Shown piece after piece: positions 43,030 to 62,177 of a stretch of DNA of 64,000 nt (position 1 is the first letter of the stretch; every line of letters starts with the position of its first letter). Source of the stretch: Escherichia coli (GTDB lineage Bacteria; Pseudomonadota; Gammaproteobacteria; Enterobacterales; Enterobacteriaceae); the NCBI RefSeq assembly GCF_044324785.1, contig NZ_CP172127.1. One strand, 5' to 3'. The position numbers were made by a program, and so were the translations under genes. Under the pieces are notes generated by a model. It searched no databases. It worked only from the letters and a program-made list of their open reading frames with translations, and was not told the DNA's origin.

Positions 43030-44166
43030 TTATTTCAGTTTGGTCTGGAAAAATTGCTCGAACTTCGCGAAAGGTATTTTTCCGGCCACGTTATCGTACA
43101 GGTCCACGTGATTTGCCCCTGTTACCACCACCAACTCTTTGTCTTTACTGCCAACCGCCTTGTAAGCATCTTCAGCAAAATAGCGTGAATGTGCTTTCTC
43201 ACCGGTCACAATCAGCGTCGGAATGGTGATTTCACTGGCGTAGCTCAACAGCGGCATATTCATAAATGACAGCGGCATCGTTGCCGTCCACGCCCCGGTA
43301 GAGTTAACGGAACGTTCGTGGAAGCCGCGCGGCATGCGATAGTAGTCAAAGAACTCTTTCAGTACCGGATGAGGATTTGCCGGCAGCGTTTCTGGCAGAA
43401 TACGCTCGCCCGCACTGACCTTGCCGTTGCTGTCGACATTAATATCATGACCACCGTGAGCGAACGTTCCGCTCTGCGCATCCTTCCAGCGCTGTTCATT
43501 CAGATATTGCAGAACAGCACGACGGTCGGCGGTAGAATAACGGTCTTTGCCATCCCCCACACCATGGCCCATCGCCCGGCTCATGTCATACATCACGCTG
43601 GTAGCTACCGCTTTAACGCGGGTATCCATCGCCGCGTCGTTCAGCGCCATGCCGCCCCAGCCACAAATACCGAGCAGCCCGATACGGTTGCGATCTACCT
43701 CTTTTTGCAGCCCTAAGAAATCCACCGCCGCGCTGAAATCTTCAGTGTTGATATCCGGTGAGGCGACGTTTCGCGGATAGCCGCCACTTTCCCCGGTGTA
43801 AGAAGGATCGAACGCCAGGGTAACAAACCCTCGTTCCGCCAGCGTCTGCGCATACAAGCCGCTGGATTGCTCTTTCACCGCGCCAAATGGCCCACTGACC
43901 GCAATCGCCGCCAGCTTGCGATCGCCACGGTCTTTAGGCAGGTAAAGATCGCCCACTAAGGTGATGCCATATCGGTTCGGGAACGAGACTTTACGGTGAT
44001 CGACTTTCTGGCTCTCGGCGAACGTTTTATCCCATTTATCTGTCATGGACACAGGGGCATTAGGATTGGTTGAATCAGCATAACTCATTGTCGTGACTCC
44101 ACTTAATGATGCGAAAAGCAGCATGGTCGGCATCGCGGTTTTTAGCGTTCGGGTGAAGGCTTTCAT
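43030..44166 (-). CDS. secreted alpha/beta-hydrolase-fold protein
   Basis: ATG 44166 follows GGGGA. Signal peptide MKAFTRTLKTAMPTMLLFASLSGVTTMSYA and a nucleophile-elbow-like GICGWGG. Confidence 0.75.
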   Translation of the reverse strand: MKAFTRTLKTAMPTMLLFASLSGVTTMSYADSTNPNAPVSMTDKWDKTFAESQKVDHRKVSFPNRYGITLVGDLYLPKDRGDRKLAAIAVSGPFGAVKEQSSGLYAQTLAERGFVTLAFDPSYTGESGGYPRNVASPDINTEDFSAAVDFLGLQKEVDRNRIGLLGICGWGGMALNDAAMDTRVKAVATSVMYDMSRAMGHGVGDGKDRYSTADRRAVLQYLNEQRWKDAQSGTFAHGGHDINVDSNGKVSAGERILPETLPANPHPVLKEFFDYYRMPRGFHERSVNSTGAWTATMPLSFMNMPLLSYASEITIPTLIVTGEKAHSRYFAEDAYKAVGSKDKELVVVTGANHVDLYDNVAGKIPFAKFEQFFQTKLK

Positions 44167-44352
44167 AAAAATCCCCATAAAAAACAACAGAGAGATACAG
44201 GTTTCCGACGGACAACGCTGCGGTGCTTTACTTTGATGGGGTCATTATAGTGAGCAGAATTAGTGCTGATTAGGGGGCGATTAATGCTAAGATTAATACC
44301 ATATTGTTATAAATTAATGCGGAGATTGCCGGCATGAAGGAGGGATGTTTCA

Positions 44353-45237
44353 ATGGCGAAAAGGGAGAACTATAACGAGCTGTACCTGTTTATGCAGGTG
44401 GTGCGAGAAGGCAGCTTTACCGCAGCGGCTCAGCGGCTGGGTCTTGCTCAGTCAGGAGTCAGCCGTTCTGTTCGCGAGCTTGAAGAAAGGCTGGGCGTCC
44501 AGCTGCTAGTGCGCACCACGCGTAAACTGTCGCTGACACAAGCAGGCGAGCAGCTCTACCAGAAGACGGCATCTGGATTTGAAATGTTAGATCTTGGGCT
44601 TGCCACGCTGGCGCACTATCGAGAGACGCCCTCCGGCACTGTGCGTATCAATGCCAGCCAGCACGCGATTGATAAATGCCTGCTGCCAAAGCTGGCGGTA
44701 TTTAAACAGCGATATCCTGATATCCGGCTTGAACTGATAAATGAGAGCCGGTTCGTCGATATCATCGAGGAAAGATTCGATGCAGGTGTCCGCCTGGGGC
44801 CTGAAGTCGGCCAGGGTATGGTCGCGGTACGCATCACGCCCGATATGGAGATGGCAATTGTGGGGACTCCGGAACATTTTCGTCGCTATGGTTTTCCGCA
44901 AACCCCGGCGGATTTAAAGGCGCATCCCTGTATCGCCTATCAGTTTGCCGACGGCAGCGTATACCAGTGGGAACTCAATCAGGATGATAAAAAAATCACT
45001 CATCGCCCTGAAGGGCAATGGGCCTTATCCGACAGCTATATGGAAGCAGAAGCAGCCCGGCTGGGCCTCGGATTGGCCTATGTTCCTGTTGAACTGGTCG
45101 CGGATGATTTAGAACACGGTAAGCTTATCAGGGTGTTGCAGCGTTACAGCCTGCGAATGGAGGGATTGTTTCTCTATTACCCTCATCGCAACGTCTCCCC
45201 CGCCCTGCGGATGGTCATTGATACATTGAAAATCTGA
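44353..45237 (+). CDS. yagP: LysR-family regulator (full-length counterpart of the K-12 yagP remnant, by position)
   Basis: HTH FTAAAQRLGLAQSGVSRSVRELEERL, 294 aa. It is divergent from the hydrolase/MFS pair. The symbol comes from synteny only. Confidence 0.7.
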   Translation: MAKRENYNELYLFMQVVREGSFTAAAQRLGLAQSGVSRSVRELEERLGVQLLVRTTRKLSLTQAGEQLYQKTASGFEMLDLGLATLAHYRETPSGTVRINASQHAIDKCLLPKLAVFKQRYPDIRLELINESRFVDIIEERFDAGVRLGPEVGQGMVAVRITPDMEMAIVGTPEHFRRYGFPQTPADLKAHPCIAYQFADGSVYQWELNQDDKKITHRPEGQWALSDSYMEAEAARLGLGLAYVPVELVADDLEHGKLIRVLQRYSLRMEGLFLYYPHRNVSPALRMVIDTLKI

Positions 45238-45453
45238 ACGTTAACAACGACCGACTCTTCACTGTGCAAAATTGTGTCAGGTAGTCCCTCTGCGTTCAAT
45301 TCCAGGGTCTGTACACCCTGCTTTGAGCGAGAAAGAGGGGACTATCCAGCAATGGAGATCACCCAAAAGAAAAAACCACCAGGCTCCCTCGACAACCTTC
45401 ATCCGGGCATTTAGCCTCAATCAACATTTTTATATCTGTCAGGTTACTTCATT

Positions 45454-45690
45454 ATGAAAACTGATCATCATCGTTGTTTTTGTTGCAATAGTAGAATACG
45501 CGTATTTATTCCTCCATCTCTATTAATAACGGCAATAAACTGTTCACTTCACTGATATTTAAAATATACATCCTTTTCAAGCTGTTCAGCGGCGTAAGAA
45601 AAAGTATTAATTATGAATTCGACGATTTAACCATTTCTGGCTGATTGGTAATCATCTGTGATTAATGCTGGTCTATTGATTACGCCAGCA
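45454..45690 (+). pseudogene. degenerate paralogous copy of the ykgR ... rpmJ2 3' end ... terminator locus
   Basis: 45457-45573 aligns with 26155-26270 (about 90 percent identity by eye). 45581-45690 aligns with 26961-27070 (about 70-75 percent). The ykgR-like frame has lost 29 nt after ATGAAA. Confidence 0.7.
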
Positions 45691-46600
45691 CCCTCTCTAG
45701 CTTATTCACCGCCGCCACATACTTCGCCGGATTTTTATCTTTCAGCACCGCCAGATTACGTTGCTTCCAGCGAATAGCCGGAAGATGCTGAATTTCAGGA
45801 TAGCGATACCGCGACCAGTCAGGGCTGTTTTGCTTAAAACTGAGCAAGAACTCGCGATCCAGATCCGTAAGATGTGACTTCAACGCCTGCGGCAGCAAAG
45901 TCGTTACTGACAGCAGCGATTCCAGCGACGTTTCCTGCTGAGTCATCCCCGAAAATTCCTGAGCATACAGCGTCGTGATCCGCTCTGTATCCCAGTTTGG
46001 GGCCAGCAACTCGGCAATGGGGCGGGGATGGCCTGCCAGATAACAAAGAAAACCGTCAAAGATCTCCCGCATCAGTCCCGGTTTCTCCAGCATATTCAGC
46101 ACATCAAACAGATCGCGCGGGTGCTGACGATCAAGCGCTGCGCAGATTTTACCGCCATAAAGATCCGCCAGCGAGACGACACTCATGGTGGTGAAGCCAT
46201 ACTCCATTTCCACACGTTCGCACACAGGCATTTCTGCCGGAGGCAACAACAGCCCGCGCCAGACCGGGCTAACCTCGATCTTAATCTTTGCATCAGCGGT
46301 ATTCACAATGATGCGCTTTTCATCCGCTTTATTTTCCTGCCGAATCGCGGTGATCCCCGGTCTGCCGTTCAGCGATGCAGTAATCCTCTTCAAAGCGTCG
46401 TTGATAGCCGCCAGATCAGTATCGCGATCCGCAAAGCTCTTATACGCCAGATCAATATCCACCGACAGACGGGGAAAATCCTGCACAAACAAATTGATTG
46501 CCGTGCCGCCTTTCAACGCGAAACAGGACTCCTTCGCCACATGCGGCAGAGCAGCCATCAACAGCTTAACCTGCCGGGCATAACTATCACGCAGATCCAT
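45680..46600 (-). CDS. AbiEii/AbiGii-family nucleotidyltransferase toxin (type IV TA / abortive infection)
   Basis: Typical DUF1814 N-terminus FALKGGTAINLFVQDFPRLSVDIDLAY. 306 aa. It overlaps the upstream partner by 14 nt. Confidence 0.85.
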   Translation of the reverse strand: MDLRDSYARQVKLLMAALPHVAKESCFALKGGTAINLFVQDFPRLSVDIDLAYKSFADRDTDLAAINDALKRITASLNGRPGITAIRQENKADEKRIIVNTADAKIKIEVSPVWRGLLLPPAEMPVCERVEMEYGFTTMSVVSLADLYGGKICAALDRQHPRDLFDVLNMLEKPGLMREIFDGFLCYLAGHPRPIAELLAPNWDTERITTLYAQEFSGMTQQETSLESLLSVTTLLPQALKSHLTDLDREFLLSFKQNSPDWSRYRYPEIQHLPAIRWKQRNLAVLKDKNPAKYVAAVNKLERVLA

Positions 46601-47390
46601 CTTCGACTCCTTCCGGTTTAAATGCGCGTGGAACAGTAATTTGATAATCCGGCTCCAGCCAGCCGCCGGGTATGATTTGCCGCTTTCCCGTACCTGTTTC
46701 TATACCGCTTTGATCAATATACTGAAAATAAGGGTGTCCATTACGCCGGGCAAGGTAAAGCATCACCCGGTTGGTTTTAACCGAATGACTGGCGCAGAGT
46801 AACGCCTGCAATTTACGCGGGCTGAGAAGATTCATCCCCTGAAACAGAGCATCGGCATGTTCGAACGATATCAACGAAGGAACGCCGCAGGCGATCTCAT
46901 ACGCGGCCAGTTCCGGGGCACTGCCTGCTAACTGCCGGTCGCCAATTTTCAGTTCCGTAGTCAATGACGTTACATCTACGGTAAGCCCCGATGTATACAG
47001 CGTGATAAATGTTGCAGATTGTTCGAAGGCAGCAAACCATCCCGGCAGCTTAACGTAAGCCGGAAGCGCGAGCCAGACCTGCGGCTTACCCGGTTCGGTA
47101 TAGTGCGCATGGCCCTGAAACGCAAGGCTGGTTAGCCCCGCCACCCGAACAGGCTTTTCCCACTGTGTTTGAAGGCAGTAAACCGCGTCTACCCAATCCG
47201 GCTCACGGCCCGTCCGGCAGTACACGCCGTGAGCGATGCGCCTGAGCCAGCCATTTTGAACATAGAGATAAGAAAGCTTACGATCTACGCCGTTGCGGGT
47301 AAGCCATGACTGGAGCAGCACCTGACCGGGTAGCGTATTTTGCATCAACCAGTTTAGATAGTTTGGCAAATGTCGCTCCTGAATAGACAT
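46587..47390 (-). CDS. AbiEi-family antitoxin / transcriptional regulator
   Basis: 267 aa with an N-terminal winged-helix region containing WLRRIAHGVYCRTG. It lies upstream of, and is translationally coupled to, the nucleotidyltransferase. Confidence 0.8.
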   Translation of the reverse strand: MSIQERHLPNYLNWLMQNTLPGQVLLQSWLTRNGVDRKLSYLYVQNGWLRRIAHGVYCRTGREPDWVDAVYCLQTQWEKPVRVAGLTSLAFQGHAHYTEPGKPQVWLALPAYVKLPGWFAAFEQSATFITLYTSGLTVDVTSLTTELKIGDRQLAGSAPELAAYEIACGVPSLISFEHADALFQGMNLLSPRKLQALLCASHSVKTNRVMLYLARRNGHPYFQYIDQSGIETGTGKRQIIPGGWLEPDYQITVPRAFKPEGVEDGSA

Positions 47391-47652
47391 TAGTAGAAAT
47401 ATTTAAACCAGTGTAGGTTCAGGGATACGCCACAGCAAGAAATAGTTTACTTATTCCTCATTTTGTCTACTTAAAATTGACATTGAGAAAAAAATACAAA
47501 CTTACCTACATTCAGGCAAAGTGCGACAAATAGACTCGGTCGGTTTAAAGAGAACGTGTAACATAGATGCAAATCGAATAGACATTGTTGCCAGCCGTTC
47601 CAAGGTTGTGGGGCGCTGCATGGCCTGAGACGTGATAAATACAGGGAACACA

Positions 47653-50600
47653 ATGAAATTCACTGAAGATACCCGAGTAAAAATCCCCGTCATCCTCCAC
47701 CTGATACGGCTGGGCTACCACTACCTGTCCCTTAAAGAACAACGCTGGGACAAAGAAACCAATATCTTCCCTGACCTCTTCACCGCTGCGATTGGCAGAA
47801 TAAATCCCGGACTTGTGCCAGACGACATCGGACGCCTGTTAAAAGACCTCACGCTGCTTCTCGACAACGATGATCTGGGCCGCGCCTTCTTCGAAAAACT
47901 CAGTGACCGTTCCGGTATCAAACTGATCGACTTTGATAACTTCAACAACAACAGTTTCCATGTCGTCACCGAACTGACCTGCGAAAACGGTGATGAAGAA
48001 TTCCGCCCGGACATCACGCTGCTGATCAACGGCATGCCGCTAATCTTTATCGAAGTGAAAAAACCCAACAATCGGGAAGGCATCGTCGCAGAACGCAACC
48101 GCATCAACGAACGCTTTAAAAACCCCAAATTCAAACGCTTCGCCAACATCACCCAGTTCATGATCTTCTCCAATAACATGGAGTATGACGACAGCGACCC
48201 GGAGCCGATTCAAGGGGCATTCTACGCCAGCAGCTCTTACAGCAACCCGGTATTCAACTACTTCCGCGAAGAAGAACTCTTCAACCTGACCAACTTACTG
48301 AAACCGCTGTCAGAAGAAACCGAAATCGCCGTCCTGAAAGACAACAACCTGGAAGTGATCCGCACCAACCCGGAATTTCAGACCAACAAAGATCACAACC
48401 GCCCGACAAACCGCCTCTGCACCGCGCTGTTGAGCCGGGATCGGCTGGCATTTATCCTGCGCTATGCGCTGGTGTATGTAGCCGAACCGGGCGGCATCCA
48501 AAAACACATCATGCGCTACCCGCAGCTCTTCGCCACCAAAGCGATTGAGCGCAAACTGAACGCTGGCGTGAAAAAAGGCATTATCTGGCACACCCAGGGC
48601 AGTGGGAAAACCGCATTGGCATACTACAACGTGCGCTTCCTGACAGATTACTTCCAGAATCAGCAGGTGATCCCGAAATTCTACTTTATTGTCGATCGTC
48701 TTGATCTGCTCCAGCAGGCGCAGCGTGAATTCACCGCCCGTGGCTTAATCGTTCACCTTATCGACTCCCGCGAAGCCTTCACCCGCGATATCAAAGCGAC
48801 GCAGGCGCTGCACAACCACCACGGCAAAGCGGAAATCACCGTCGTCAACATCCAGAAATTCCGCGATGACCCGGATGTCGTCACCACCAAAGACTACGAC
48901 ATCAACATCCAACGCGTGTACTTCCTCGATGAAGTCCACCGCAGCTACAACCCCAAAGGGAGCTTCCTGGCGAATTTAAGCCAGTCGGACACCAACGCCA
49001 TCAAAATTGGCCTGACCGGTACGCCTCTGCTGGGCACAGACTACAACTCCCGCGACCTCTTCGGCGACTACATCCACAAATACTACTACAACGCCTCCAT
49101 TGCCGACGGCTACACGCTGCGCCTGATCCGTGAAGAGATCGCCACCAACTACCGGATGATCCTGCAACAGGCGCTAAAAGACGTAGAAGTCAGAATGGGC
49201 GATGTGGATCGCAAAGACATCTACGCCCATCCCAGTTTCGTCAAACCGATGCTGAACTACATCGTCACCGACTTTGCCAAAAGCCGGGGCGCACTGAATG
49301 ATGACACCATCGGCGGCATGGTGATTTGCGACAGCTCAGAACAGGCCAAGCAGATGTTTGAGATATTCAACACTGACTACGCCGAATCGCCCACCGCTGC
49401 CGATGACGTCGCCGAAGAAATGCCGGTATTACAGGCCGCAGAGCCTGCCGCCGTTTACCAGATCCACGCCAAAGAAACGCGGAAAATCAAACGCGCCGCC
49501 CTGATCCTGCACGACGTCGGCAGCAAGCAGGAGCGCAAAGAATGGGTGGATCAATTCAAAGCGGGCGAGATTGACCTGCTGTTCGTCTACAACATGTTGC
49601 TCACGGGCTTTGACGCCAAACGGCTAAAAAAACTCTACCTCGGGCGGGTGATCAGAAAGCACAACCTGCTCCAGGCGCTGACCCGCGTCAACCGAACCTA
49701 CAACCACTTCCGCTACGGCTATGTGGTGGACTTCGCCGACATCCGCCAGGAATTTGACGCCACCAACAAAGCCTACTTCGAAGAGCTACAGGCTGAACTG
49801 GGCGATGAAATGGAGCATTACTCCCGCCTGTTCAAATCAGCGGATGAGATTCGCGAAGAAATCGAACATATCAAAGACGTTCTGTTTAGCTTCGATACCG
49901 AAAACGCGGAAATCTTCACTGACCAGATAAACCAGATCCATGACCGGGAAACCGCGCTGGTACTGAAAAACGCGCTGGCCGACGCCCGCAGCCTGTACAA
50001 CCTGATTCGCCTCCAGGGCAACACTGAGTTTCTCCAGGCGCTGGATTTCAACAAACTCAACATCCTTTACCGCGAAGCCAGCCGCCGCCTCGACTTACTC
50101 AACCTGAAGGCGGATCTGGAACAGGGTGTTGACCTCTCCGGCCTGCTGAACCGGGCGCTGGAAGAGGTGATCTTTGAATTCCACAAAGTGGGCGAAGAAG
50201 AGCTGGTACTGGCCGACGAGCTGAAAGAGACGCTGCGCCGCACCCGCGAAGCGCTGGCCGCCAACTTCGACCAGCAGGACCCGCAGTTCGTCAGCCTGAA
50301 AGACGAACTGGAGCGTCTGTTTAAGAAAAAGAAACTCAGCGAAGTCACCCAGCAAGAAATGGTTGCGAATATCGGCACACTCAATAAAATTCATGGCCGC
50401 ATCAAAGAGCTAAACCGCCAAAATAACCTGCTGCGCCAGAAATACCGTGGCGACGTGAAATACGCGCGTACCCACAAACGCCTGCGCGAGCGCGGCGGCC
50501 TGAGCGAGCCGGAGCGTAAAATCTTCGAAGCACTGCTTGGCGTTAAGCTGGATGCGGATGAAAAAGTGCTGAATAACAGCCAGATACTGAACAACGAAAG

Positions 50601-50751
50601 CTATTTTGAGCGGCAGATTGTGTCATGTGTACTCGATCACTTTGAACAACAGCAGCACATCACCCTGAGTGCGAAAGCGGCTGGCGACATCAACCGCCTG
50701 ATTGTGGCGGAATACCTGAACGAATTTAATACCGGAGCACGTACGTGGTAG
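47653..50751 (+). CDS. hsdR: type I restriction enzyme R subunit HsdR
   Basis: N-terminal PD-(D/E)xK nuclease motif (RPDITLLINGMPLIFIEVKK), and helicase motifs GSGKT and DEVH. Start at ATG 47653 (MKFTEDT). Confidence 0.9.
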   Translation: MKFTEDTRVKIPVILHLIRLGYHYLSLKEQRWDKETNIFPDLFTAAIGRINPGLVPDDIGRLLKDLTLLLDNDDLGRAFFEKLSDRSGIKLIDFDNFNNNSFHVVTELTCENGDEEFRPDITLLINGMPLIFIEVKKPNNREGIVAERNRINERFKNPKFKRFANITQFMIFSNNMEYDDSDPEPIQGAFYASSSYSNPVFNYFREEELFNLTNLLKPLSEETEIAVLKDNNLEVIRTNPEFQTNKDHNRPTNRLCTALLSRDRLAFILRYALVYVAEPGGIQKHIMRYPQLFATKAIERKLNAGVKKGIIWHTQGSGKTALAYYNVRFLTDYFQNQQVIPKFYFIVDRLDLLQQAQREFTARGLIVHLIDSREAFTRDIKATQALHNHHGKAEITVVNIQKFRDDPDVVTTKDYDINIQRVYFLDEVHRSYNPKGSFLANLSQSDTNAIKIGLTGTPLLGTDYNSRDLFGDYIHKYYYNASIADGYTLRLIREEIATNYRMILQQALKDVEVRMGDVDRKDIYAHPSFVKPMLNYIVTDFAKSRGALNDDTIGGMVICDSSEQAKQMFEIFNTDYAESPTAADDVAEEMPVLQAAEPAAVYQIHAKETRKIKRAALILHDVGSKQERKEWVDQFKAGEIDLLFVYNMLLTGFDAKRLKKLYLGRVIRKHNLLQALTRVNRTYNHFRYGYVVDFADIRQEFDATNKAYFEELQAELGDEMEHYSRLFKSADEIREEIEHIKDVLFSFDTENAEIFTDQINQIHDRETALVLKNALADARSLYNLIRLQGNTEFLQALDFNKLNILYREASRRLDLLNLKADLEQGVDLSGLLNRALEEVIFEFHKVGEEELVLADELKETLRRTREALAANFDQQDPQFVSLKDELERLFKKKKLSEVTQQEMVANIGTLNKIHGRIKELNRQNNLLRQKYRGDVKYARTHKRLRERGGLSEPERKIFEALLGVKLDADEKVLNNSQILNNESYFERQIVSCVLDHFEQQQHITLSAKAAGDINRLIVAEYLNEFNTGARTW

Positions 50752-50909
50752 AACTGTAATTTAGAGATAAAACCAAAACCCTGATCGACAGCCTGAAAAG
50801 CATCTGTGCGAACTACGGCCTGGGCAACGACGGTAACGAATTCAAAATTATCACTCAGGCATTCCTGTACAAATTCCTGAACGACAAATTCGCCTTTGAA
50901 GCCAAAAAG

Positions 50910-52382
50910 GTGGATAAAAGCATCGCCAGCGCCGAAAAATGGGAAGTCGCGCTCAATCAGATGAGCGAAGAACAGCGGGATAAACTGCAACTGAAGATGA
51001 GCGCCGACACTGCGCGTCTGAAGCCGCATCACTTCATTCAGTATTTATACAACCGTCAAAATGAGGCCAATTTCGCCACCACCTTTGACGACACCCTGAT
51101 GGACATCGCCGCCACCAACAACGACGTCTTCGCGGTCAAAACTGACGGCGGCGCGAAAGTGGTGCTGTTTGAGCGCCTCAGCCAGTACATCGCCGACGAA
51201 TCAAGGCGCGACGACTTCTGCCGCGCCATTATCAACAAACTGGCCGATTTCAGCTTCGAGCGCATCTTCACGCAGAAATTCGACTTCTACGCCACTATCT
51301 TTGAATACCTGATCAAAGACTACAACAGCAACTCCGGCGGCAAATACGCGGAATACTATACGCCCCACGCCGTGGCGCGCATCATGGCGGAAATCCTGGT
51401 GCCGAAAGCACAACAGGGCGTAGTGCGCAACGTAAGCTGTTACGACCCGTCCGCCGGTTCCGGCACCTTACTGATGAACGTGGCGCACGCCATCGGGGAA
51501 GATCGTTGCAGCATCTTCGCGCAGGACATCTCGCAGAAATCCTCCAGCCTGCTGCGCCTGAACCTGATCCTCAACAATCTGGTGCATTCGATCCCCAACG
51601 TGATTCAGGGCAACACCATTCTGCACCCGTTCCACAAGGACGGCAGCGCGCTGAAACGCTTTGACTATATCGTCTCTAACCCGCCGTTTAAGATGGATTT
51701 CAGCGATTTCCGCGACGATTTGGATAGCAAGGAAAACCAGCAACGTTTCTTTGCCGGGATACCAAAAATCAAAGCCAAAGCCAGGGACAAAATGGAAATT
51801 TACCAGTTGTTCCTGCAACACATCATTTTCTCGCTGAAACCGGATGGTAAGGCGGCGGTCGTGGTGCCGACCGGGTTTATCACCGCGCAGTCGGGCATTG
51901 ATAAAGGGATTCGCGAACATCTGGTGAAAAACAAGATGCTGGCGGGTGTGGTTTCCATGCCGTCGAATATCTTCGCCACCACCGGCACTAACGTATCGAT
52001 CCTGTTTATTGACGCCAGCAACAAAGAGAAAGTGGTGCTGATCGACGCCTCGAATTTAGGTGAAAAGGTCAAAGACGGCAAAAACCAGAAAACGGTGCTG
52101 ACCGAAGAAGAAGAGCAGCGCATCTGCGAAGTGTTCAACAACAAGTGGAGCGAAGAGGATTTCTCGGTGGTGGTCAGCTATGACGAGATCGCCGGGAAAA
52201 ATTACTCGTTCAGCGCCGGGCAGTATTTCGATGTGAAAATTGAATACACCGATATGACGCCGGAACAGTTTGCCGCGAAGATGAACGGGTTTACGGAGAA
52301 TCTGGAGAGTTTGTTTAGCCAGTCGCGCGAGCTGGAGGTGGAGATTAAAAAGCAGATGGCGGGGCTGAATTTCCATGGTTAA
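50910..52382 (+). CDS. hsdM: type I R-M methyltransferase subunit HsdM (start codon problematic, see findings)
   Basis: AdoMet motif DPSAGSGTLL and catalytic NPPF. The reading frame is open and HsdM-N-like from 50760, but the first canonical start is GTG 50910. Confidence 0.8.
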   Translation: MDKSIASAEKWEVALNQMSEEQRDKLQLKMSADTARLKPHHFIQYLYNRQNEANFATTFDDTLMDIAATNNDVFAVKTDGGAKVVLFERLSQYIADESRRDDFCRAIINKLADFSFERIFTQKFDFYATIFEYLIKDYNSNSGGKYAEYYTPHAVARIMAEILVPKAQQGVVRNVSCYDPSAGSGTLLMNVAHAIGEDRCSIFAQDISQKSSSLLRLNLILNNLVHSIPNVIQGNTILHPFHKDGSALKRFDYIVSNPPFKMDFSDFRDDLDSKENQQRFFAGIPKIKAKARDKMEIYQLFLQHIIFSLKPDGKAAVVVPTGFITAQSGIDKGIREHLVKNKMLAGVVSMPSNIFATTGTNVSILFIDASNKEKVVLIDASNLGEKVKDGKNQKTVLTEEEEQRICEVFNNKWSEEDFSVVVSYDEIAGKNYSFSAGQYFDVKIEYTDMTPEQFAAKMNGFTENLESLFSQSRELEVEIKKQMAGLNFHG

Positions 52383-53493
52383 AACTATTGGTGATGCTTG
52401 TAATATTAGTACAGGTAAACTTGATGCAAACCAGGCTGTAAAAGGTGGTGATTATCCGTTTTTTACGTGCGCAGAGTTCCCTGAACAAATCGATCATTAT
52501 GCATTTGACGGCGATGTGGTTCTTATTGCTGGCAATAATGCAAGAGGAAACTTTCACGTAAGCAGGTATCAAGGGAAATTTAATGCTTACCAGCGAACCT
52601 ATGTGCTTACAGCCAAACATGGTTATGATATTGATTATATTTACTATGCCTTAAGACTTGAATTAAAGCGATTGCGAGAAAAATCTCAAGGCTCGCAAAC
52701 AAAGTTTCTGACAATGCCGATTTTGACCAGTATATCGCTAGGAAACCTAGTCGAGACTGAACAATCGACAGTTTCAAGAGTATTAAAAATACTGGATAAA
52801 AAAATCGCTCTCAACAATCGTATCAACGCCGAGCTGGAAGCGATGGCGAAAACACTGTATGACTACTGGTTTGTACAGTTTGATTTCCCTGATGCCAACG
52901 GAAAACCGTATAAAACCTCCGGCGGGAAGATGGTGTACAACGCCACGCTGAAACGGGAAATTCCGGCGGGGTGGAATATTAAAAATCTTGGCGATATAGC
53001 GGAACTATATCAGCCTAAGACCATTTCAGGTAACGATTTTATTGATGATGGTGAATATCTTGTATATGGAGCCAACGGTATTGTAGGAAGATTCAATAAA
53101 TATAACCATGAAGAACCTGTCGTTACAATCACCTGCCGTGGAAATACGTGCGGCAATATAAACGTCACACGACCATATTCATGGATTACAGGGAATGCAA
53201 TGGTGGTTAAGCCAAAGTTTAACTATATTTCACCTTATTATATTTATAATTTATTGTCGATATCGGAAGTTGATAAAGTCATTACTGGCTCTGCTCAACC
53301 TCAAATTACGCGAGCAAACCTAGCTCCACTTAAGGTTGTTGAACCAGCAGAGGACATTACGCAAAAATACTCAAAGTCTGTTGATGCTTTTTTTAAAAAG
53401 CATATCTCAATATTAGATGAAAATGATAATTTATTAAAACTCCGCGACTGGCTCCTCCCCCTGCTTATGAACGGACAGGTCACGGTCAAATAA
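52375..53493 (+). CDS. hsdS: type I R-M specificity subunit HsdS (two target-recognition domains)
   Basis: Its ATG overlaps the hsdM stop. It has two low-GC TRDs separated by the conserved spacer LDKKIALNNRINAELEAMAKTLYDYWFVQFDFP, and a conserved C-terminal LRDWLLPLLMNGQV. Confidence 0.85.
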   Translation: MVKTIGDACNISTGKLDANQAVKGGDYPFFTCAEFPEQIDHYAFDGDVVLIAGNNARGNFHVSRYQGKFNAYQRTYVLTAKHGYDIDYIYYALRLELKRLREKSQGSQTKFLTMPILTSISLGNLVETEQSTVSRVLKILDKKIALNNRINAELEAMAKTLYDYWFVQFDFPDANGKPYKTSGGKMVYNATLKREIPAGWNIKNLGDIAELYQPKTISGNDFIDDGEYLVYGANGIVGRFNKYNHEEPVVTITCRGNTCGNINVTRPYSWITGNAMVVKPKFNYISPYYIYNLLSISEVDKVITGSAQPQITRANLAPLKVVEPAEDITQKYSKSVDAFFKKHISILDENDNLLKLRDWLLPLLMNGQVTVK

Positions 53494-53632
53494 TCCCCGC
53501 CGTGTTTTGCGAGGCGCATTCCAGATCCACATTGCGCCGCGCTCACCGCTGTAAAACCGCTTGCCGTTCATAACCGATCGAAGTATCTTTCTCCCGCGCC
53601 TGCAAAATCAGGCGTCGGGATTAGCCTCCTGA

Positions 53633-53645
53633 AAACCGTTACAGG
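53633..53645 (+). promoter_or_regulatory. upstream target repeat (seqA-like) of the antisense RNA
   Basis: AAACCGTTACAGG; its CGTTACAGG is complementary to RNA loop nt 53739-53747. A GATTAGCCTC repeat (53619-53628) precedes it. Confidence 0.55.
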
Positions 53646-53700
53646 CGACACTTGACGCACCAGCGTCTTTTTTGTGTCGTGCGTTCGGCTACACCTCAAT

Positions 53701-53782
53701 GGCGGGCCGGGCGGGGGCGTCGCAAGACGCGCCGGTTTCCTGTAACGCCGGTAAGGCTAACCCCGTCCGGTTCCGCCACCCA
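53701..53782 (+). ncRNA. tRNA-like antisense regulatory RNA of the phage P1 C4 / P4 CI type
   Basis: Hand-folded structure. The long terminal stem pairs 53701-53716 with 53761-53777 (one bulge). A GCAA-tetraloop hairpin spans 53717-53730. A second hairpin (53731-53752) has a 12-nt loop, UUUCCUGUAACG. The 3' tail is ACCCA. The loop is complementary to both flanking repeats. Confidence 0.6.
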
Positions 53783-53813
53783 TGAGATTAGCCTCTCTAG
53801 TGGCGGACATAAT

Positions 53814-53829
53814 AAACCGTTACAGGAGA
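53814..53829 (+). promoter_or_regulatory. downstream target repeat (seqC-like) overlapping the SD of the 156-aa ORF
   Basis: CGTTACAGGAGA (53818-53829) can pair with all 12 loop nucleotides (one G-U pair). It contains AGGAG (53824-53828), 7 nt before ATG 53836. Confidence 0.55.
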
Positions 53830-53835
53830 TGCCCT

Positions 53836-54306
53836 ATGGCTACAATCCTCACCCCTGACTGCGATTTACTCGATCTGTTATCCGTTCCCTTCAATGCCAC
53901 CACGGATTTTACTGTCCTTGCCGATTACTGCACCCGCTTCGCCGAAACCCTGATAGAAACCGACGATCCCGCGCTGCGGCTGGCGCTGAGCGGACGGCTT
54001 CACGCGGCTCTTGCGCTACTGCAACCCACACTGCATGACCCCATCCCGCCGCATCTTACCGAAAGCCTGACCGTTAATACCCTTCCCGCCACACCAGAGC
54101 ACTTTATTTCCGAACCCGATTCCTTGTGCGAATACTGCCTCGCACTGCTCCAGCTTCTGCTGGAACGCCCGGCGGAGCCAAAAATGGAGCAAACCCTGAC
54201 CGGGCTGCTGTGTGAGCTGGTCTGGAATTTCACGGAAGGACTCAAATCCCCGCGCTGGCTGCGTACCGCCGACGGCGTAAAATTTATCAGTGAGGTGGCC
54301 GCATGA
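53836..54306 (+). CDS. hypothetical acidic Leu-rich protein, 156 aa, no recognisable domain
   Basis: ATG with a good SD. It starts [15 protein letters not shown]... No TM segment or signal peptide. Its stop overlaps the start of the next (broken) gene. Confidence 0.6.
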
Positions 54307-54449
54307 TGCAACAGGACTGGCATTCCACCGACATTATCGCCACGCTGAAAAAGCGGGGAACGTCTCTGGCGGCGCAGAGAAAAACTCATTGCGGACGCGC
54401 TGTAAATATCGTCAGAAATCATCTGGCCTTCAAGGTACTTTGATAGCAA
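54303..54449 (+). pseudogene. Ner/Nlp-like small DNA-binding protein, internally deleted and interrupted
   Basis: The N-terminus [24 protein letters not shown] resembles Ner/Nlp. The characteristic C-terminus (S)EI(I)WPSRYF appears only in another frame, after a stop. Confidence 0.55.
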
Positions 54450-54451
54450 AG

Positions 54452-54655
54452 GCAAGCAGGCTGGTTCAGTCCCGTGTTTCTCTTCTTGCATTTTCAGAAA
54501 TGGGAGGCTGGGAGTCTATCGAAATGGTTCGTCGATATGCTCACCTCGCACCTAATCACCTTACCGAACACGCACGGCAAATAGACTCGATCCTGAACCC
54601 ATCGGTCCCAAATTTGTCCCAGTCAAAAAATAAGGAAGGTACTAATGATGTGTAA
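54452..54655 (+). pseudogene. C-terminal ~67 codons of a lambdoid (P22-type) tyrosine integrase
   Basis: [37 protein letters not shown] contains the catalytic-Tyr box (RYAHL). There is no N-terminal or core domain upstream. It ends 14 nt before the att core. Confidence 0.75.
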
Positions 54656-54669
54656 CTTATTGATTTAAA

Positions 54670-54715
54670 TGGTGCCGATAATAGGAGTCGAACCTACGAC
54701 CTTCGCATTACGAAT
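54670..54715 (-). other. 46-nt 3' fragment of tRNA-Thr (thrW): attachment-site core, not a functional tRNA
   Basis: The reverse complement reads ATTCGTAATGCGAAGGTCGTAGGTTCGACTCCTATTATCGGCACCA, which is the anticodon loop, T-arm, acceptor 3' strand and CCA as I recall thrW. The 5' half is absent. Confidence 0.75.
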
Positions 54716-55044
54716 CTGTAGAACCAATCATAACTATCTGTTTTAGCAAGCATTAACCGCATTCACCAAGCAATAGTTGATGGCACAAACAGAAAGTTGA
54801 TGCATGATGTTGTCATGTGTATGTCACAAATACGGCACAACGATCTTCAAACATGTAGCCACCCAGCATAGAAGAGCACAAATCCTTGCAATCCAGTGCA
54901 AAGCTTTGTGTACCTTAGTTTTGTCTCATAGGTAATTCTGCTTTAACTGCGATGCAGGAATCTGTCACCAGACGCACGTCTCGTTGTTTTATGGTTTTCC
55001 GTTCATGATTAATATGTTAGCTTGTCAAAGTTTGTGTTTAAGAT

Positions 55045-55716
55045 ATGGTGATTGATGCAATGTTAAGCGTTCAGATGACTCCACAAGCAAAAGTTAGCTT
55101 CGAGGAGCAATGTTTTTTTCATGCTTCATGTCTTGTTGTTGCCCCAATAAATGTTGGAGCATTCTCCTACTTTGGCGCTAATTGTATGCTCGGCGGCTTT
55201 ACGATGGGTAGATTTTGTTCAGTTGCTCCAGGAGTAAAAATTGGCCTTGGCGAGCATGAAACTGGGTATTTTTCTACGCATCCTTTTTTCTTTGGCTCAA
55301 AAAATGGTTTTAAAATCCCTGATGGTATAGGAATGCAACGCGACCTCTCTCAACAGAAGCATGGTATACCAAGAATTGGTCATGACGTATGGATAGGTGC
55401 AAATGCGGTTATCAGGCGAGGTATAACTATTGGTACTGGCGCTGTTATTGCTGCTGGCGCTATTGTCACCAAAAATGTCGATCCATATTCAATCGTAGGT
55501 GGCGTTTCTGCAAAACACCTAGGGTACAGATTTGAGGAATCAATCATCAAAGAGTTACTGGATAGCCAATGGTGGGAATATGATTTAAGCTCATTTATTG
55601 GGATTGATACAAGGACACCGACGACTTTTTTAGAGCAGTTTAATGCTGTAAAAGATAAAAAGAAGGCATCTTATAAGAGATTTACAATTCTTCCATCCGG
55701 TGAAATTGTTGAATAG
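55045..55716 (+). CDS. XAT-class hexapeptide-repeat acetyltransferase (CatB/Vat-like)
   Basis: [66 protein letters not shown] and the C-terminal [11 protein letters not shown] fit the xenobiotic acetyltransferase pattern. The start codon is uncertain (weak SD). Confidence 0.75.
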
Positions 55717-55735
55717 CGCATCCCTGCGCTATATT

Positions 55736-58105
55736 TTAAATAAACATAAGAATAAACATCAGAAGTTCTTCGTATCTGATACCATACTGATAGCCAGCAG
55801 GTTTAATAATAACCTGCCTTCCTGTGTAATATTCCTCGTCGTACCACTCTCCTGTTTCATTGTTTTTAACACTCCTAATCAATACCTCTGGAGCATAAAT
55901 ATCATCCCATTCATCATAACACCAGAACGCATAGTTATTAGGGTCAAGACCGTATTTTCTGAGAATATTACCTACAGTTTGTGCACCAACGCCGAAATGA
56001 ATCCGAGCGCCATCACTCTTGATCTTTACTGCATCTTTAAATTTAAACCTCCAGATATTTTCCTTTATTTCAAGCGCAGCAAGACGCTCTGATTCTGTTG
56101 TTTTCTCGTCAGCCTCAATACGCAATTTCAGCTCTTCATTCGACGTGTTGATACTGCCAGTACCAGCGTATACCTGTGACCATCGAAATGCTGATGTTCC
56201 GTTTGAGTTAACATTATCAACAGTTGGTTTTATAAGGCCAGAAAAATGAGTTTCAGGTGTATTAATATATGTATATGCACCTGCTGTACTACGAGTCCTT
56301 AACTCAAAGCTGTCTATATCAACACCAGTCCTACGAATTATAAGGAAGTTATTTCCTGCGGAACCAGTATCGGTTTGAGTGCTAACAGACAATCCGTTTC
56401 GTGTATCAATACGTATATTCTTCCCGTTCTCCAGCGAAGCAGAATTATGTAGATACAGCGAGTTGTCAGTGTAGAGATTGTGTTTACCTACATTGCTAAA
56501 TGTATAAGTATTGCTTGTGTTATCACTGTTCCTATGGAATTGCTGAAGAGTGTAGGCAGAAGATGCTCCGTATCCATCACAATGGAAATTTCTGCACAGC
56601 TGCAAATCGAATAACAATACGGTGTCAGCATTAATGCTCACATTATTAAAGCATGTTGCAAAGTTGGCACCATACTGTGAATTGGAATCGCCAATCTGTG
56701 CGCACACATCAAGCAAACCAAAAGTTACATTGGTAAAGTTATTTGCATCACCGGCGTCAAGAACAATCCCTTTCTTAGTCCCTGAATACCCTCTGGCAGT
56801 GCCGATCTCAACTCCCTGGAATGAACACACGCGAGCACGACTAAGCTTAAGACCAACCCATTCCAGACCATGATCGTAACCTTTTGCTGCGCGGTGAATA
56901 AACATACCATTCATGATGAGAAGGAATCTGTTATCAAGCCGTACTGGTTCAAGTTGGGCATTAATACCAACATTTGTGCATATACATTCACCATAAGCAT
57001 AACGATTCGTTTCAAATATACGATCATCAGCGTCGTAAATGCCTCGTAATGCCTTGGCGGCATCAATATTAAGCAATGTAAAATATGTCTTCTGCTTAAT
57101 TTCAAAAAAATTTGCAACATTATGCGTTGTGATATCACTCACACGCATTGATAAAATCCCCTCTTCTGGAGCGGTGCGAATGAATCCATCAAGGAACTGT
57201 TCATTATAACTTTTGGCTATCTGATAACATCCAACAGCATCAATGCGTTCGATTGTGAACTGCCAACTATCACCACAGTTAAAAGACCATCTCCAGCCGT
57301 ATTTCTGAGCGAATTCATCATATTCAACATTTGCAGGTTCAGAACAGAAAGATAAAAATCTAAATGTTGGTTTTGGCCTTAGATGGTTAATCCCGGAACC
57401 TCTTGGGGTATATATGGCATTATCTCCATTCCCACCTTTTGTTTTAACTGTAAGGTGACTTAAACCAAATTCAATATCATATTTAGTTGGTGCGGCGAAA
57501 ACAAAGCCGTCTTTTGGTGATGTGGTATTGTCAAACACAATAACCGTTTCACCCTGCCCATCACCGCACATATTTACTGGTGGTATATTAACGGGGCCAG
57601 TCAAACTATATGTTCCAGTTGGCACATATAGTTTTCCACCCTCTCCAATAGCATTTGCCGCTGCAATAAATGCCGCCGTATCATCGTTAACACCGTCACC
57701 TTTCGCCCCATAATGCTGTGGCGTAATTAACAGCATACGGTCAGAAAAAATCTCTGTCCTAAGTTGATCAGGATCGTATTTTAATACATTTGGAAAATAA
57801 AACTGCTGAGTGCCATATGCATCATATACAGCCATAGAATGGCCTTGCACGGTAACGAATTTGGCAATCTGTCCGTTATATACCGGATAACCAGCAGCGT
57901 TAATAATGATTGGTTGAGAAACAGGAACGTGAGAACCGTCTTCGTTCTCTACATAAACCGGAATCTGGTTTTCAGGATTTACCGGGTCAGTGTCAATTTT
58001 ACCGATATAAATTTTTCCATTAGCATTTGCTTTAAACGAGCGAGCTAAAGTGAATAACTGACTTGGTTGTGAAACAACAACATTGGCATTTATTGAATCT
58101 GTCAT
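55736..58105 (-). CDS. tailspike: P22 gp9-type head-binding domain + pectate-lyase-like beta-helix depolymerase + C-terminal intramolecular chaperone (peptidase S74-like) domain
   Basis: The N-terminus [18 protein letters not shown]...[26 protein letters not shown]...[13 protein letters not shown] is nearly the P22 gp9 N-domain. [19 protein letters not shown] is a beta-helix signature. The C-terminal part has NTSNEELK (Ser-x4-Lys) and a chaperone-like tail. Confidence 0.9.
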
Positions 58106-58163
58106 TTAATTTACTCCAGATACAAGGAATCGCCGCAGCATGGCTACGGTGAATTTTGGGCAT

Positions 58164-58186
58164 AAAAAACCCAGCCGAAGCTGGGT
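58164..58186 (-). terminator. rho-independent terminator between ant and the tailspike gene
   Basis: On the minus strand: ACCCAGC-TTCG-GCTGGGT followed by TTTTTT. Confidence 0.8.
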
Positions 58187-58204
58187 CGTTGCGTTGGTTA
58201 TCTG

Positions 58205-59083
58205 TCAGTAGTTATGTACTGAAGGAGGTAATTCTTTATTCTTAAGTCTCATCCATGCGGAAATATTCGTTGGTCCGTCTGGCTCATTAATATCAACATC
58301 TCGTGTGTGATTGATTAAAACGTCTCTCGCCATTCCGATAACATACGAGAATTCATGACCGTAGTCGTAGCATCTGCCGGAATAGTTCGATTGAATTTGT
58401 TTCAGCGCCGGATACAGTTCGCGGAATAATGCCTGTGAGCGGTTGGCATAATCCCATAACCATACAAGGCTGTTTGCTTCTTTTGCAGAAAGCTCGTTGG
58501 TTTTCTTCTCTTGTTTGCCAATGAACTCACCTTCAAGCACTACCCTGTGGATGTACTCTACGGCCAGCGGGATTTGTTCAATTGAAAGTTCATCAATGCT
58601 GTCAATACCAAAACGCTGATGAACCATATTGTATGCATCGTCATAGCGAAGTCCTTTCTTTCCTACCAGCATGTTTACTGCATCGCGTAGCGGTGTTCTT
58701 TCCTCAACAGTGGTTTTCTTTCCTTTTACATACTCGCCATGTTTGCGAATTGAAGGCAGAACTTCTGCTGTTACCCACTTGCGGAATTTGTGCGGGACTG
58801 AACCTTTATTGACTGCATCGCGGCAGCGCAGAACCAATGTATACATACCTGATTCGCTCACAATGCTTAGATTCTGCTCACCACCAAGGGTGTAACTTAA
58901 AGTTACTCCCTTTTCATCGTCATCAAGTGCAGTAAGCGCCTTGCGTGAGTTAGTCAAATCTAAAGCATCACAAACATCTTTAGCTACAAACCACGGCTCA
59001 CCGCACTTGTTGATGACGCGGATTTCACTGTCGCCGAATTTGAAGATGGTGAAATCGTTTTGTGCCTTTGCTATACTTTTCAT
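58205..59083 (-). CDS. ant: antirepressor Ant (Bro-N + KilA-C type)
   Basis: [28 protein letters not shown]...[11 protein letters not shown] is a Bro-N domain. It is immediately downstream of arc, as in P22 immI. Confidence 0.9.
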
Positions 59084-59151
59084 GTCAATATTTCCTAATC
59101 CGATTTGTTGATGCCGAAGCCCTGACTGTTACAGCAGTTGGGGCTTCAACT
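59084..59151 (+). ncRNA. possible sar-type antisense RNA covering the arc-ant intercistronic region
   Basis: The 68-nt arc-ant spacer is the size recalled for P22 sar RNA. It contains a hairpin, gaagccc...gggcttc. Promoter and ends were not verified. Confidence 0.3.
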
Positions 59152-59313
59152 TTACGCACCAATGCGCCCTTCCTTCTTAAAGCTTTCCATTACTCGCTGA
59201 TAAATCTCAGAATTAACAGACCGACCATTTTCTTCCGCCACCTTGCGTACCAAATCCAATACTTCTTTAGGCCACCGCAAATTGAACTGTGGCATTTTGC
59301 TCATTCCTTTCAT
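59152..59313 (-). CDS. arc: Arc repressor
   Basis: MKGMSKMPQFNLRWPKEVLDLVRKVAEENGRSVNSEIYQRVMESFKKEGRIGA (53 aa). It is essentially P22 Arc as I recall it. Confidence 0.95.
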   Translation of the reverse strand: MKGMSKMPQFNLRWPKEVLDLVRKVAEENGRSVNSEIYQRVMESFKKEGRIGA

Positions 59314-59329
59314 GTTCACCTCACAATAT

Positions 59330-59346
59330 AGGTCCACGGTGGACCT
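59330..59346. promoter_or_regulatory. Mnt operator
   Basis: Perfect 17-bp palindrome AGGTCCACGGTGGACCT between arc and mnt, identical to the recalled P22 Omnt. Confidence 0.85.
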
Positions 59347-59355
59347 ATTGAGAAT

Positions 59356-59376
59356 ATAGTAGAGTGCTTCTATCAT
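59356..59376. promoter_or_regulatory. Arc operator
   Basis: ATAGTAGAGTGCTTCTATCAT is the reverse complement of ATGATAGAAGCACTCTACTAT, the recalled 21-bp P22 Arc operator. Confidence 0.85.
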
Positions 59377-59403
59377 GTCAATACACTAACTTGGAGTGAT
59401 GGC

Positions 59404-59658
59404 ATGGCTAGAGATGATCCGCACTTTAACTTCCGTATGCCTTTGGAAGTAAGAGAAAAATTGAAATTAAGAGCCGAGGCTAACGGAAGGTCAATGAACT
59501 CTGAGTTATTACAAATCGTTCAGGATGCACTATCAAAACCATCACCGATTACAGGATATCGCGACGAAGCTGAACGCTTGGCTGATCAGCAGGCTGAGCA
59601 GTTCAAGGCTATAGTGTTTGAGACACTTAAAAAGATTTATGAAAAGGATTTGAAATGA
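59404..59658 (+). CDS. mnt: Mnt repressor
   Basis: MARDDPHFNFRMPLEVREKLKLRAEANGRSMNSELLQIVQDAL... is a ribbon-helix-helix protein close to P22 Mnt. It is divergent from arc. Confidence 0.95.
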   Translation: MARDDPHFNFRMPLEVREKLKLRAEANGRSMNSELLQIVQDALSKPSPITGYRDEAERLADQQAEQFKAIVFETLKKIYEKDLK

Positions 59659-59709
59659 GATTTCTATCACTGTTCTTGTTAGCAGTTGTCTCTTCTTCCA
59701 GTGCTGAGC

Positions 59710-61461: not shown

Positions 61462-61482
61462 CGATAGGATTATGGCCCTACA

Positions 61483-61668: not shown

Positions 61669-61699
61669 AACTTTCATCCTATAACTATTTGGAATCAAA

Positions 61700-61882: not shown

Positions 61883-61883
61883 T

Positions 61884-62172: not shown

Positions 62173-62177
62173 TAATC

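Follow-up and report, generated by a model that had tools for sequence, protein, structure and literature searches.

The interval beside the threonine tRNA gene thrW of Escherichia coli is a described site of defence-bearing islands. In sequence type 131 (ST131; strain EC958) its occupant was published as GI-thrW (PMC4659465; see also PMC4134206), in which AbiEii/AbiEi, hsdR-hsdM-hsdS, an ash/C4 RNA region, a small gene here called orf156 and an integrase tail lead up to thrW, and whose type I restriction-modification system, EcoMIII, was found to methylate RTACN4GTG using a knockout and single-molecule real-time (SMRT) sequencing (PMC4659465). Hotspot #33 in Table S1 of Hochhauser et al. (2023) is the interval yagP-proA with tRNA-Thr-CGT; of 555 mapped genomes, 275 have defence systems there, and that study shows 'integrase-only' elements at this hotspot, which carry an integrase and defence genes without other mobility genes and whose mobilisation it calls unclear and leaves open (PMC10121019). 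Here we analyse a block at the same chromosomal position and with the same architecture in a 64,000-nt stretch of E. coli DNA from contig NZ_CP172127.1 ('the window' denotes this whole stretch, and all coordinates are counted from its first letter). Between 45680 and 54669 the order is AbiEii/AbiEi (minus strand), hsdR-hsdM-hsdS (plus strand), isrK/a1b1 and C4 RNA elements, orf156, a Ner-like pseudogene and an integrase tail. Both the locus (GI-thrW, hotspot #33) and the concept have been published before, and the case is ordinary rather than new; because it re-describes a catalogued locus of well-known systems, it matters little in itself. The points of interest left are a private hsdM knockout, a cargo slot with two alleles, and a c4-type RNA backbone that can serve as a marker and is a possible control circuit.

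Compared with GI-thrW, the window has hsdRM genes ~95% identical to those of EcoMIII, whose methyltransferase activity has been shown (PMC4659465). The hsdS product is 415 aa long in ST131 and 372 aa in the window, with different target recognition domains (TRDs), and because of these the recognition sequence is expected to differ. At its left end GI-thrW retains a partial thrW core and a P4-type integrase pseudogene, and the pao/LysR flank is missing from it. Of the two, it is the window that has the premature stop in hsdM and a P22-like prophage beyond the thrW core.

Modules of the c4 type are also known from the phages P1 and P7. The P1/P7 immI region and the P4 CI RNA (seqA-seqB-seqC) resemble the window in having leader boxes, a C4-type RNA with two loops, and the same boxes again over the ribosome-binding site (RBS) of the next gene. 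P4 and the window both match the Rfam models for C4 and isrK/c4-a1b1, and the Rfam family for 'a1, b1 targets of C4' matches P4. The regulated genes are icd/ant in P1/P7 and kil/epsilon/alpha in P4, as against orf156 and a Ner-type helix-turn-helix (HTH) gene in the island, and the host element is a phage (P1/P7) or a capsid-hijacking satellite (P4) as against a defence island. The module occurs in Gifsy-1 too (PMC4825925), where the isrK-orf45-anrP locus (Hershko-Shalev et al. 2016) likewise has an isrK-type leader with its own terminator and read-through into a translationally silent cistron, the short IsrK acting in trans on its own read-through transcript (PMC4825925); the downstream genes and the host element are different ones. 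The P4 hotspot of Rousset et al. (2022), defined between psu and int beside cos, is similar in its tRNA integration, in the P4-family integrase (found in relatives of the island) and in a slot that exchanges unrelated defence systems. It differs from the island, which is without psu, cos and other P4 markers and has its slot next to the promoter of the RNA operon. The searched text of Hochhauser et al. (2023) is silent on a c4-type RNA/orf156/Ner backbone, and the copy in the window has lost even the integrase of the hotspot #33 islands.

An island backbone and its copy at thrW

With a probability of about three in four, we read the block as a decayed member of a small, tRNA-integrating family of 'integrase-only' defence islands of Enterobacterales, lying at the known thrW/proA-pao/LysR hotspot and having lost its tRNA-proximal backbone, most simply along with a lambdoid prophage. 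The family, 'integrase-only' islands with a C4/orf156/Ner backbone, is defined here from the relatives of the block. Identities were assigned with an open reading frame (ORF) listing, Pfam, PADLOC, Rfam at gathering thresholds, ARAGORN and BLAST. Homologues of orf156 gave 409 matches across Enterobacterales, and every orf156 locus retrieved has isrK and then C4 upstream. The order isrK-C4-orf156-HTH_35-EFASI-Integrase_1-int-tRNA is kept in five other species, the loci sharing it being those of E. whittamii, S. arizonae, Citrobacter, Enterobacter and Acerihabitans as well as other loci of E. coli. Downstream of orf156 these relatives have an HTH_35 (Ner) gene, sometimes an AbrB/MazE-like gene, EFASI, an Integrase_1 gene, a P4-family integrase and a tRNA gene (Phe or Asn).

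The clearest intact member is an island of E. coli R32_14_1F (3000-24500 of locus L022), which lies at tRNA-Phe, flanked by the core genes yghD and yqgA. Its defence-type genes, among them an AbiEii/DUF6088 pair and an OLD-type nuclease, lead into ash/C4, orf156, Ner, Integrase_1, int and tRNA-Phe; the island contains no further genes. Islands at this site, pheV (hotspot #5 of Hochhauser et al., PMC10121019), are marked by an 88%-identical orf156 in more than 500 assembly blocks and always show AbiEii (minus strand), an AbiEi-like gene (minus strand), a slot (plus strand) and the RNA operon. The pheV islands between yghD and yqgA were also seen to have the full backbone, a non-orthologous AbiE pair (353 aa plus DUF6088) and cargo that includes TerB, BrxC-like and helicase genes. 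In relatives the cargo beside the RNA promoter comprises GajA, Avs2, a HEPN protein, HipA, a defence-associated reverse transcriptase (DRT) and an AAA_13 ATPase. EFASI was located between the Ner-type and Integrase_1 genes at 12362-12490 and 18664-18791 of locus L007, 11429-11557 of L008, 10975-11103 of L006 and 12187-12316 of L011; L007 additionally has a STAXI motif.

The window has the same a1b1-C4-orf156-Ner operon (53561-54455) with a defence slot, here hsdRMS, directly 5' of its promoter. Between Ner and the tRNA, the Integrase_1 gene and the P4-family integrase are absent and a lambdoid integrase scar stands in their place; it is because of this absence that we call the copy decayed. 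The Ner-like (HTH_35) pseudogene (54303 to ~54455, plus strand), judged against the intact Ner of two relative loci (L007 and L024), is nearly full length and has a ~57-nt internal deletion, a frameshift and a stop. It is followed by the integrase tail (~54462-54655, plus strand), the final ~64 codons of a tyrosine integrase of lambdoid/P22 type, which converges on thrW and is 89% identical in protein sequence to a lambdoid integrase of O157:H7. The end of the tail and the adjoining core (54497-54715) match, at 99.5% identity over 219 nt, the 3' terminus of the integrase gene from an O157:H7 lambdoid prophage at thrW, a remnant with cII, cro and a cI/LexA-type gene that itself converges on thrW. 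Judged by this match, the tail is a scar of an earlier lambdoid prophage and not the island's own integrase. The thrW core (54670-54715, minus strand) is the 46-nt 3' portion of the tRNA-Thr gene and represents the attachment (att) core that remained when the adjoining P22-like prophage integrated; it matches relatives exactly, and divergence starts at 54716. ARAGORN found no complete tRNA in the window, and a full thrW gene within it was rejected, only the 46-nt core being present. The reason is the P22-like prophage inserted in thrW on the right; both its integrase and the entire thrW gene must be located outside the window. In relatives without this prophage the block adjoins an intact thrW and then proA.

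The proposed course of events can be put as follows. Intact members have, outward from the tRNA, a P4-family integrase, an Integrase_1 gene, EFASI, a Ner-type HTH gene, orf156, the c4-type RNA with its a1b1 leader and a variable slot; this slot lies directly upstream of the RNA operon promoter and holds defence genes, often preceded by an AbiE-type pair. In the present lineage the tRNA-proximal backbone would have been lost, most simply through one deletion that took with it the greater part of a lambdoid prophage formerly at thrW and left the 3' end of the lambdoid integrase fused beside the Ner relic. The P22-like prophage would have integrated into thrW afterwards. What was lost would accordingly be a backbone of ~3-4 kb (the rest of Ner, EFASI, Integrase_1 and int), not morphogenesis or replication genes of a satellite.

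Population counts were taken among 5,426 complete E. coli genomes. The AbiE pair occurs in 832 of them, the RNA module with orf156 in ~800 and hsdRM in 576-596, while in 261 genomes a 1,069-aa reverse transcriptase replaces hsdRMS, as in strain ES1. The ES1 enzyme is an RT_UG5-nitrilase DRT (PADLOC 1034 bits; 10724-13933 in the ES1 locus) between identical AbiE and RNA flanks. Homology between the hsd version in the window and the DRT version in ES1 stops at 47596 and resumes at 53560; the slot is therefore the interval from the AbiE flank to the promoter of the RNA operon. The two cargo types together approximate the number of AbiE-positive genomes (576-596 plus 261 versus 832), and in E. coli the slot at thrW has essentially two alleles, holding either a type I restriction-modification system or a UG5-nitrilase DRT. 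This two-allele slot between fixed flanks is a convenient natural example of defence swapping.

These results bear on an initial annotation of the window, which had described an accessory defence island without its own integrase starting at about 45690. All the components it listed were recovered where it had placed them by Pfam, PADLOC and Rfam, PADLOC matching AbiEii, AbiEi, REase_I, MTase_I and Specificity_I, and the only integrase sequence in the window is the ~64-codon lambdoid-type tail. The left edge falls at 45679-45688, given by the start of ST131 homology at 45679 and by comparison with RM9088, which has an extra 2.8 kb (SDR, LysR and an integrase C-terminal fragment) at 45685-45688. 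The accessory status holds as well, with AbiE and hsdRM limited to the numbers of genomes given above; the block is neither universal nor core in E. coli, and the universal conservation that would speak against an accessory island is therefore not what is found. A base composition that sets the block apart was borne out in part: hsdS (GC content 0.38-0.42) and the left junction (0.41) deviate, while AbiE and hsdRM, at 0.50-0.56, are largely core-like. Finally, AbiE, cargo slot and RNA module behave as one unit, as had been supposed, and not as unrelated insertions, since the order recurs at tRNA-Phe with a non-orthologous AbiE pair and the slot swaps between fixed flanks.

The predicted c4-type RNA switch and orf156

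The breakpoint of the cargo swap at 53560 adjoins a candidate promoter of the RNA operon (53561-53589, plus strand; TTGCCG-17 nt-TATCTT) that ends 7 nt 5' of the start of the isrK model. Its hexamer cores are invariant in 10 of 10 homologous modules, and it scores below the threshold of a consensus scan. The isrK-like, or c4-a1b1, element follows (53596-53673, plus strand; Rfam RF01394, 68 bits), with box b1 (TTAGCCT, 53621-53627), box a1 (CGTTACAGG, 53637-53645) and an intrinsic terminator at its end (53654-53673). The C4-type antisense RNA (53695-53783, plus strand) matches Rfam RF01695 over its full length (model positions 1-87) with 79.9 bits against a gathering threshold of 45; its loops are a' (CCTGTAACG, 53739-53747) and b' (AGGCTAA, 53754-53760). 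Ahead of orf156 lie the downstream target boxes b2 (53788-53794) and a2 (53818-53826), the latter overlapping the GGAG Shine-Dalgarno sequence of orf156 (53825-53828). All of these elements are on the plus strand, as is orf156 itself (53836-54306), an intact and conserved ORF of 156 aa between the RNA and the Ner relic with a predicted four-helix bundle and beta-hairpin.

We examined covariation of boxes and loops in ten aligned modules (window 53556-53850 and nine homologues), using 16 pairs, 500 shuffles and slid controls. For the downstream boxes against the C4 loops, 96.2% of cells are paired, with changes on both sides in 9 of the 16 pairs and a covariation score of 0.567 (shuffled mean 0.189, reached by 0 of 500 shuffles; slid controls 22-46% paired). 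The upstream boxes are paired with the loops in 100% of cells, both sides having changed in 10 of 16 pairs; here the score is 0.621, the shuffled mean 0.223, again no shuffle out of 500 reaches it, and the slid controls are 25-45% paired. Covariation thereby shows pairing of the C4 loops with both sets of boxes. At least six box/loop specificity combinations can be read from the alignment of the ten modules, which suggests that they represent heteroimmunity types among the islands. The heteroimmunity of P1 and P7 rests on c4 specificity types, and the covariation in the family of the window is consistent with this.

By analogy with P1 immI and Gifsy-1 IsrK we infer that orf156 is the first gene under the control of the predicted switch, with C4 blocking its translation and the leader boxes competing for C4. 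The operon would work like P1 immI or P4 CI, the conserved promoter giving the b1/a1 leader and part of the transcripts ending at the terminator. Read-through would yield the C4 RNA, both loops of which would pair with b2/a2 over the RBS of orf156, and the leader boxes would compete for these same loops. In the window the RNA switch and orf156 are intact, and the remainder of the operon is dead or missing. An action of C4 in trans on phages sharing its specificity was considered and found unsupported, as none of the IMG/VR contigs has the box pair or the loop pair of the window. In phage records orf156 is represented by a single 1.5-kb fragment only.

It is tempting to extend this, tentatively, to the regulation of the islands. 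The a1b1/C4-orf156-Ner(-EFASI-Integrase_1) operon might be the missing control circuit of 'integrase-only' islands, a heteroimmune switch that silences an excision/transfer operon until a signal arrives, for example from a helper phage or a conjugative element, and the thrW copy might be a domesticated one that still makes the RNA. We hold this idea to be doubtful as it stands; the c4-type backbone is nonetheless a testable lead on how 'integrase-only' islands are regulated. As a simple sequence marker, the c4-type RNA/orf156/Ner backbone points to such islands and their cargo slots across Enterobacterales.

The AbiE pair and the type I restriction-modification genes

The left part of the block is formed by abiEii (45680-46600, minus strand), which encodes an intact nucleotidyltransferase toxin of 306 aa from a type IV toxin-antitoxin/abortive-infection pair (Pfam PF08843 at 6e-36; PADLOC AbiEii 386 bits, 3e-116), and abiEi (46587-47369, minus strand), whose product is the antitoxin and transcriptional regulator (PF17194 and PF11459; PADLOC AbiEi 260 bits, 4e-78). 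The latter is also intact and measures 260 aa when read from the start assigned in relatives; its longest ORF extends to 47390. The two ORFs overlap on the minus strand, as in an operon of a type IV pair. Across nine near-identical islands abiEii is identical but for one silent-site variant at 45711. From homology, AbiEi would restrain the AbiEii toxin and repress its own operon, and the two together would cause abortive infection. The divergent intergenic region (47370-47652) has a conserved flank shared with the DRT-carrying variant (47370-47596) and a part belonging to the hsd cargo (47597-47652). The initial annotation had presumed both promoters and any AbiEi autoregulatory sites to lie here, within the 262 bp of 47391-47652. 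Prediction of an AbiEi operator or promoter in this region gave nothing above chance: a single promoter-like site on the plus strand (47483-47512) does not exceed chance, and repeats are weak only.

On the other side, hsdR, hsdM and hsdS lie in one operon in the order R-M-S, as in EcoMIII, with diagnostic domains in each (Pfam, PADLOC). The restriction subunit gene hsdR (47653-50751, plus strand) is intact and encodes 1032 aa with HSDR_N, ResIII, SWI2_SNF2 and T1R_D3 domains (PADLOC REase_I). The specificity subunit gene hsdS (52375-53493, plus strand) is intact as well (372 aa), low in GC and with two TRDs (PF01420 twice; PADLOC Specificity_I); these are unlike the TRDs of ST131 and ETEC relatives, and homology to other alleles is short and central only. 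Not all three frames are open, however, since the methyltransferase gene hsdM (50745-52382, plus strand) is interrupted by a TAA at codon 5 (50757-50759) that results from a G>T change at 50757. Translation and alignment give GAA at this codon in ETEC4070 and GPEC172 against TAA in the window. The next canonical in-frame start is a GTG at 50910, use of which would cost 55 conserved N-terminal residues, and the PADLOC MTase_I profile is matched only from position 57 of 541.

Nine independent assemblies carry near-identical islands over 9,516 bp, and all of them have G at 50757. The change is the sole difference from three of the nine and the sole difference shared against all nine; the nonsense codon is private to this strain. 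Type I enzymes depend on HsdM for modification and restriction alike. Because HsdM is needed for both activities and hsdM stops at codon 5, a very recent single-base change has probably left this strain with a type I system that is inactive or strongly impaired. In terms of the HsdR/M/S complex, the private stop would most likely abolish or severely lower both modification and restriction, and a single-base knockout of this kind alters predictions of the restriction barrier and the methylome of the strain.

Other possible origins of the block, and its flanks

Several observations weigh against the reading of the block as a decayed 'integrase-only' island or against the activities assigned to its parts. 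We found no thrW-located relative with an intact Ner, Integrase_1 and P4-family integrase beside thrW, and the proposed deletion of the backbone is reconstructed from islands at pheV and at Asn and Phe tRNA genes. ST131, GPEC172 and RM9088 keep a 439-aa-type (thrW-type) integrase, or a fragment of it, to the left of AbiEii. This integrase shares 69% identity with that of CP4-6-like thrW islands and ~22% with those of pheV islands. Because these strains keep it, the thrW island may have used this left integrase, or may consist of two fused remnants; the integrase itself may be the island's own or part of a neighbouring relic. At the level of function, the roles of the AbiE pair in abortive infection and of the hsd genes in restriction-modification are assigned by homology only, residual HsdM could be made through leaky reinitiation, and the transcription of both RNAs is predicted from the conserved candidate promoter and the terminator. 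Attempts to assign a function to orf156 gave none.

The left integrase bears most directly on the view that the block is a composite of at least two unrelated decayed insertions at thrW, an AbiE element (perhaps with hsd) on the left and an RNA-orf156-Ner element on the right, fused by deletion. Such a history would fit its likeness to the CP4-6-like integrases and its unlikeness to those of the islands with the RNA module, as well as the different lambdoid integrase scars at the two ends in ST131. It would fit also with the many hits taken by thrW, where CP4-6-like islands, another island with a P4-type integrase, phages and the P22-like prophage occupy the same core in near-identical backgrounds. 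We nevertheless think a composite unlikely. At pheV an AbiE-type pair, the slot and the RNA operon recur together within one island that core genes delimit; the thrW slot exchanges its cargo between AbiE and RNA flanks that stay conserved, the cargo alleles adding up to the AbiE-positive count; and there is no copy of the att core between AbiE and the RNA module.

Much can be said for kinship with P4. The RNA module is, from its covariance-model matches, of the same type as P4 CI, P4 itself having the same isrK/a1b1 and C4 layout; the integrases of intact relatives (pheV-type) are 50-57% identical to P4 Int; and the ST131 order of integrase, cargo, RNA operon and att is colinear with circular P4. 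Moreover, P4-like satellites do use hotspot #33 (PMC10121019), and defective P4/P2 elements that keep conserved defence genes are documented (PMC13586616). On the other hand, tblastn of all P4 proteins against 45000-55000 gave no match outside the RNA region, and no trace of gop, beta, cII, alpha, ORF106, ORF151, epsilon, Vis, sid, delta or psu was found by tblastn in the window island, the ST131 GI-thrW or the complete relatives L022, L024, L007 and L008, including relatives bounded by core genes. The 19-nt core of the P2/P4 cos site was unmatched in the whole window at up to three mismatches. Downstream of the RNA, orf156 and Ner are unrelated to kil, epsilon and ORF151 of P4 (a relationship of orf156 to ORF151 was rejected at a BLASTP E of 9.9), and the cargo slot adjoins the RNA promoter rather than cos/psu as in Rousset's definition. 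The left integrase of ST131 shares only 26% identity with P4 Int, the window has only the lambdoid-type tail where a P4-family integrase would stand beside the tRNA, and c4-type modules are found in lambdoid phages too, with ~72% identity in the immunity regions of Stx and SfV phages. Given that no other P4 protein leaves a trace, that cos is absent and that orf156 is unrelated to ORF151, P4 and the island therefore have in common only the RNA switch and, in relatives, the integrase family. That the block is a degenerate P4-type capsid-hijacking satellite, which lost psu/sid/delta, cos, epsilon/alpha and int and kept its hotspot cargo and CI immunity RNA, is thus quite unlikely, and the island is not demonstrably a satellite of the P4 kind.

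The initial annotation had leaned towards this last possibility, and its observation that psu, sid, delta, a primase (alpha) and an intact integrase are missing agrees with the tblastn results. Its picture of a satellite or prophage reduced to defence cargo and immunity RNA is right in that a reduced mobile element with a P4-CI-type RNA is present; the satellite part does not hold, as complete relatives are themselves without psu, sid, delta, epsilon, alpha and cos. Of the more complete relatives it expected, those bearing an integrase were found, and none has alpha or psu. The analogy to the P4 defence hotspot fails, as the landmarks psu, int and cos are all missing here.

The decayed-island reading leaves the block in an unstable neighbourhood. 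ST131 has two integrase tails, each beside a thrW core, and these are, as different alleles, scars of separate lambdoid integrations; that the two 'tail plus core' repeats are a true att duplication was rejected because the tails differ as alleles. In near-identical island backgrounds the same thrW core (locus position ~10880) is empty or filled by CP4-6-like islands, an IntF-type island or a phage, the CP4-6-like occupants carrying CbtA/CbeA, RadC, antirestriction and Ag43 genes. This shows a very rapid turnover of the site at thrW.

To the left, a low-GC spacer (45238-45679) that follows a LysR gene forms the junction and contains a ykgR-like fragment (~45449-45517). The flank beyond it (43030-45237) holds alpha/beta-hydrolase and LysR genes, annotated in relatives as an MFS/hydrolase/LysR cluster. 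The left neighbour had been named as yagP, but blastn detected no similarity between the LysR gene and yagP of K-12, and the gene was rejected as its orthologue. The 'yagP' flank varies among lineages, and pao/LysR is absent altogether from ST131. To the right, 54716-64000 is the end of the P22-like prophage in thrW, with a CatB-type O-acetyltransferase gene (55045-55716), a tailspike gene (55736-58105, minus strand), an antirepressor, Arc/Mnt and the sar antisense RNA (59085-59151). An Rfam match to the IS009 small RNA (35552-35752, minus strand, 189.5 bits) lies elsewhere in the window and is unrelated to the defence block.

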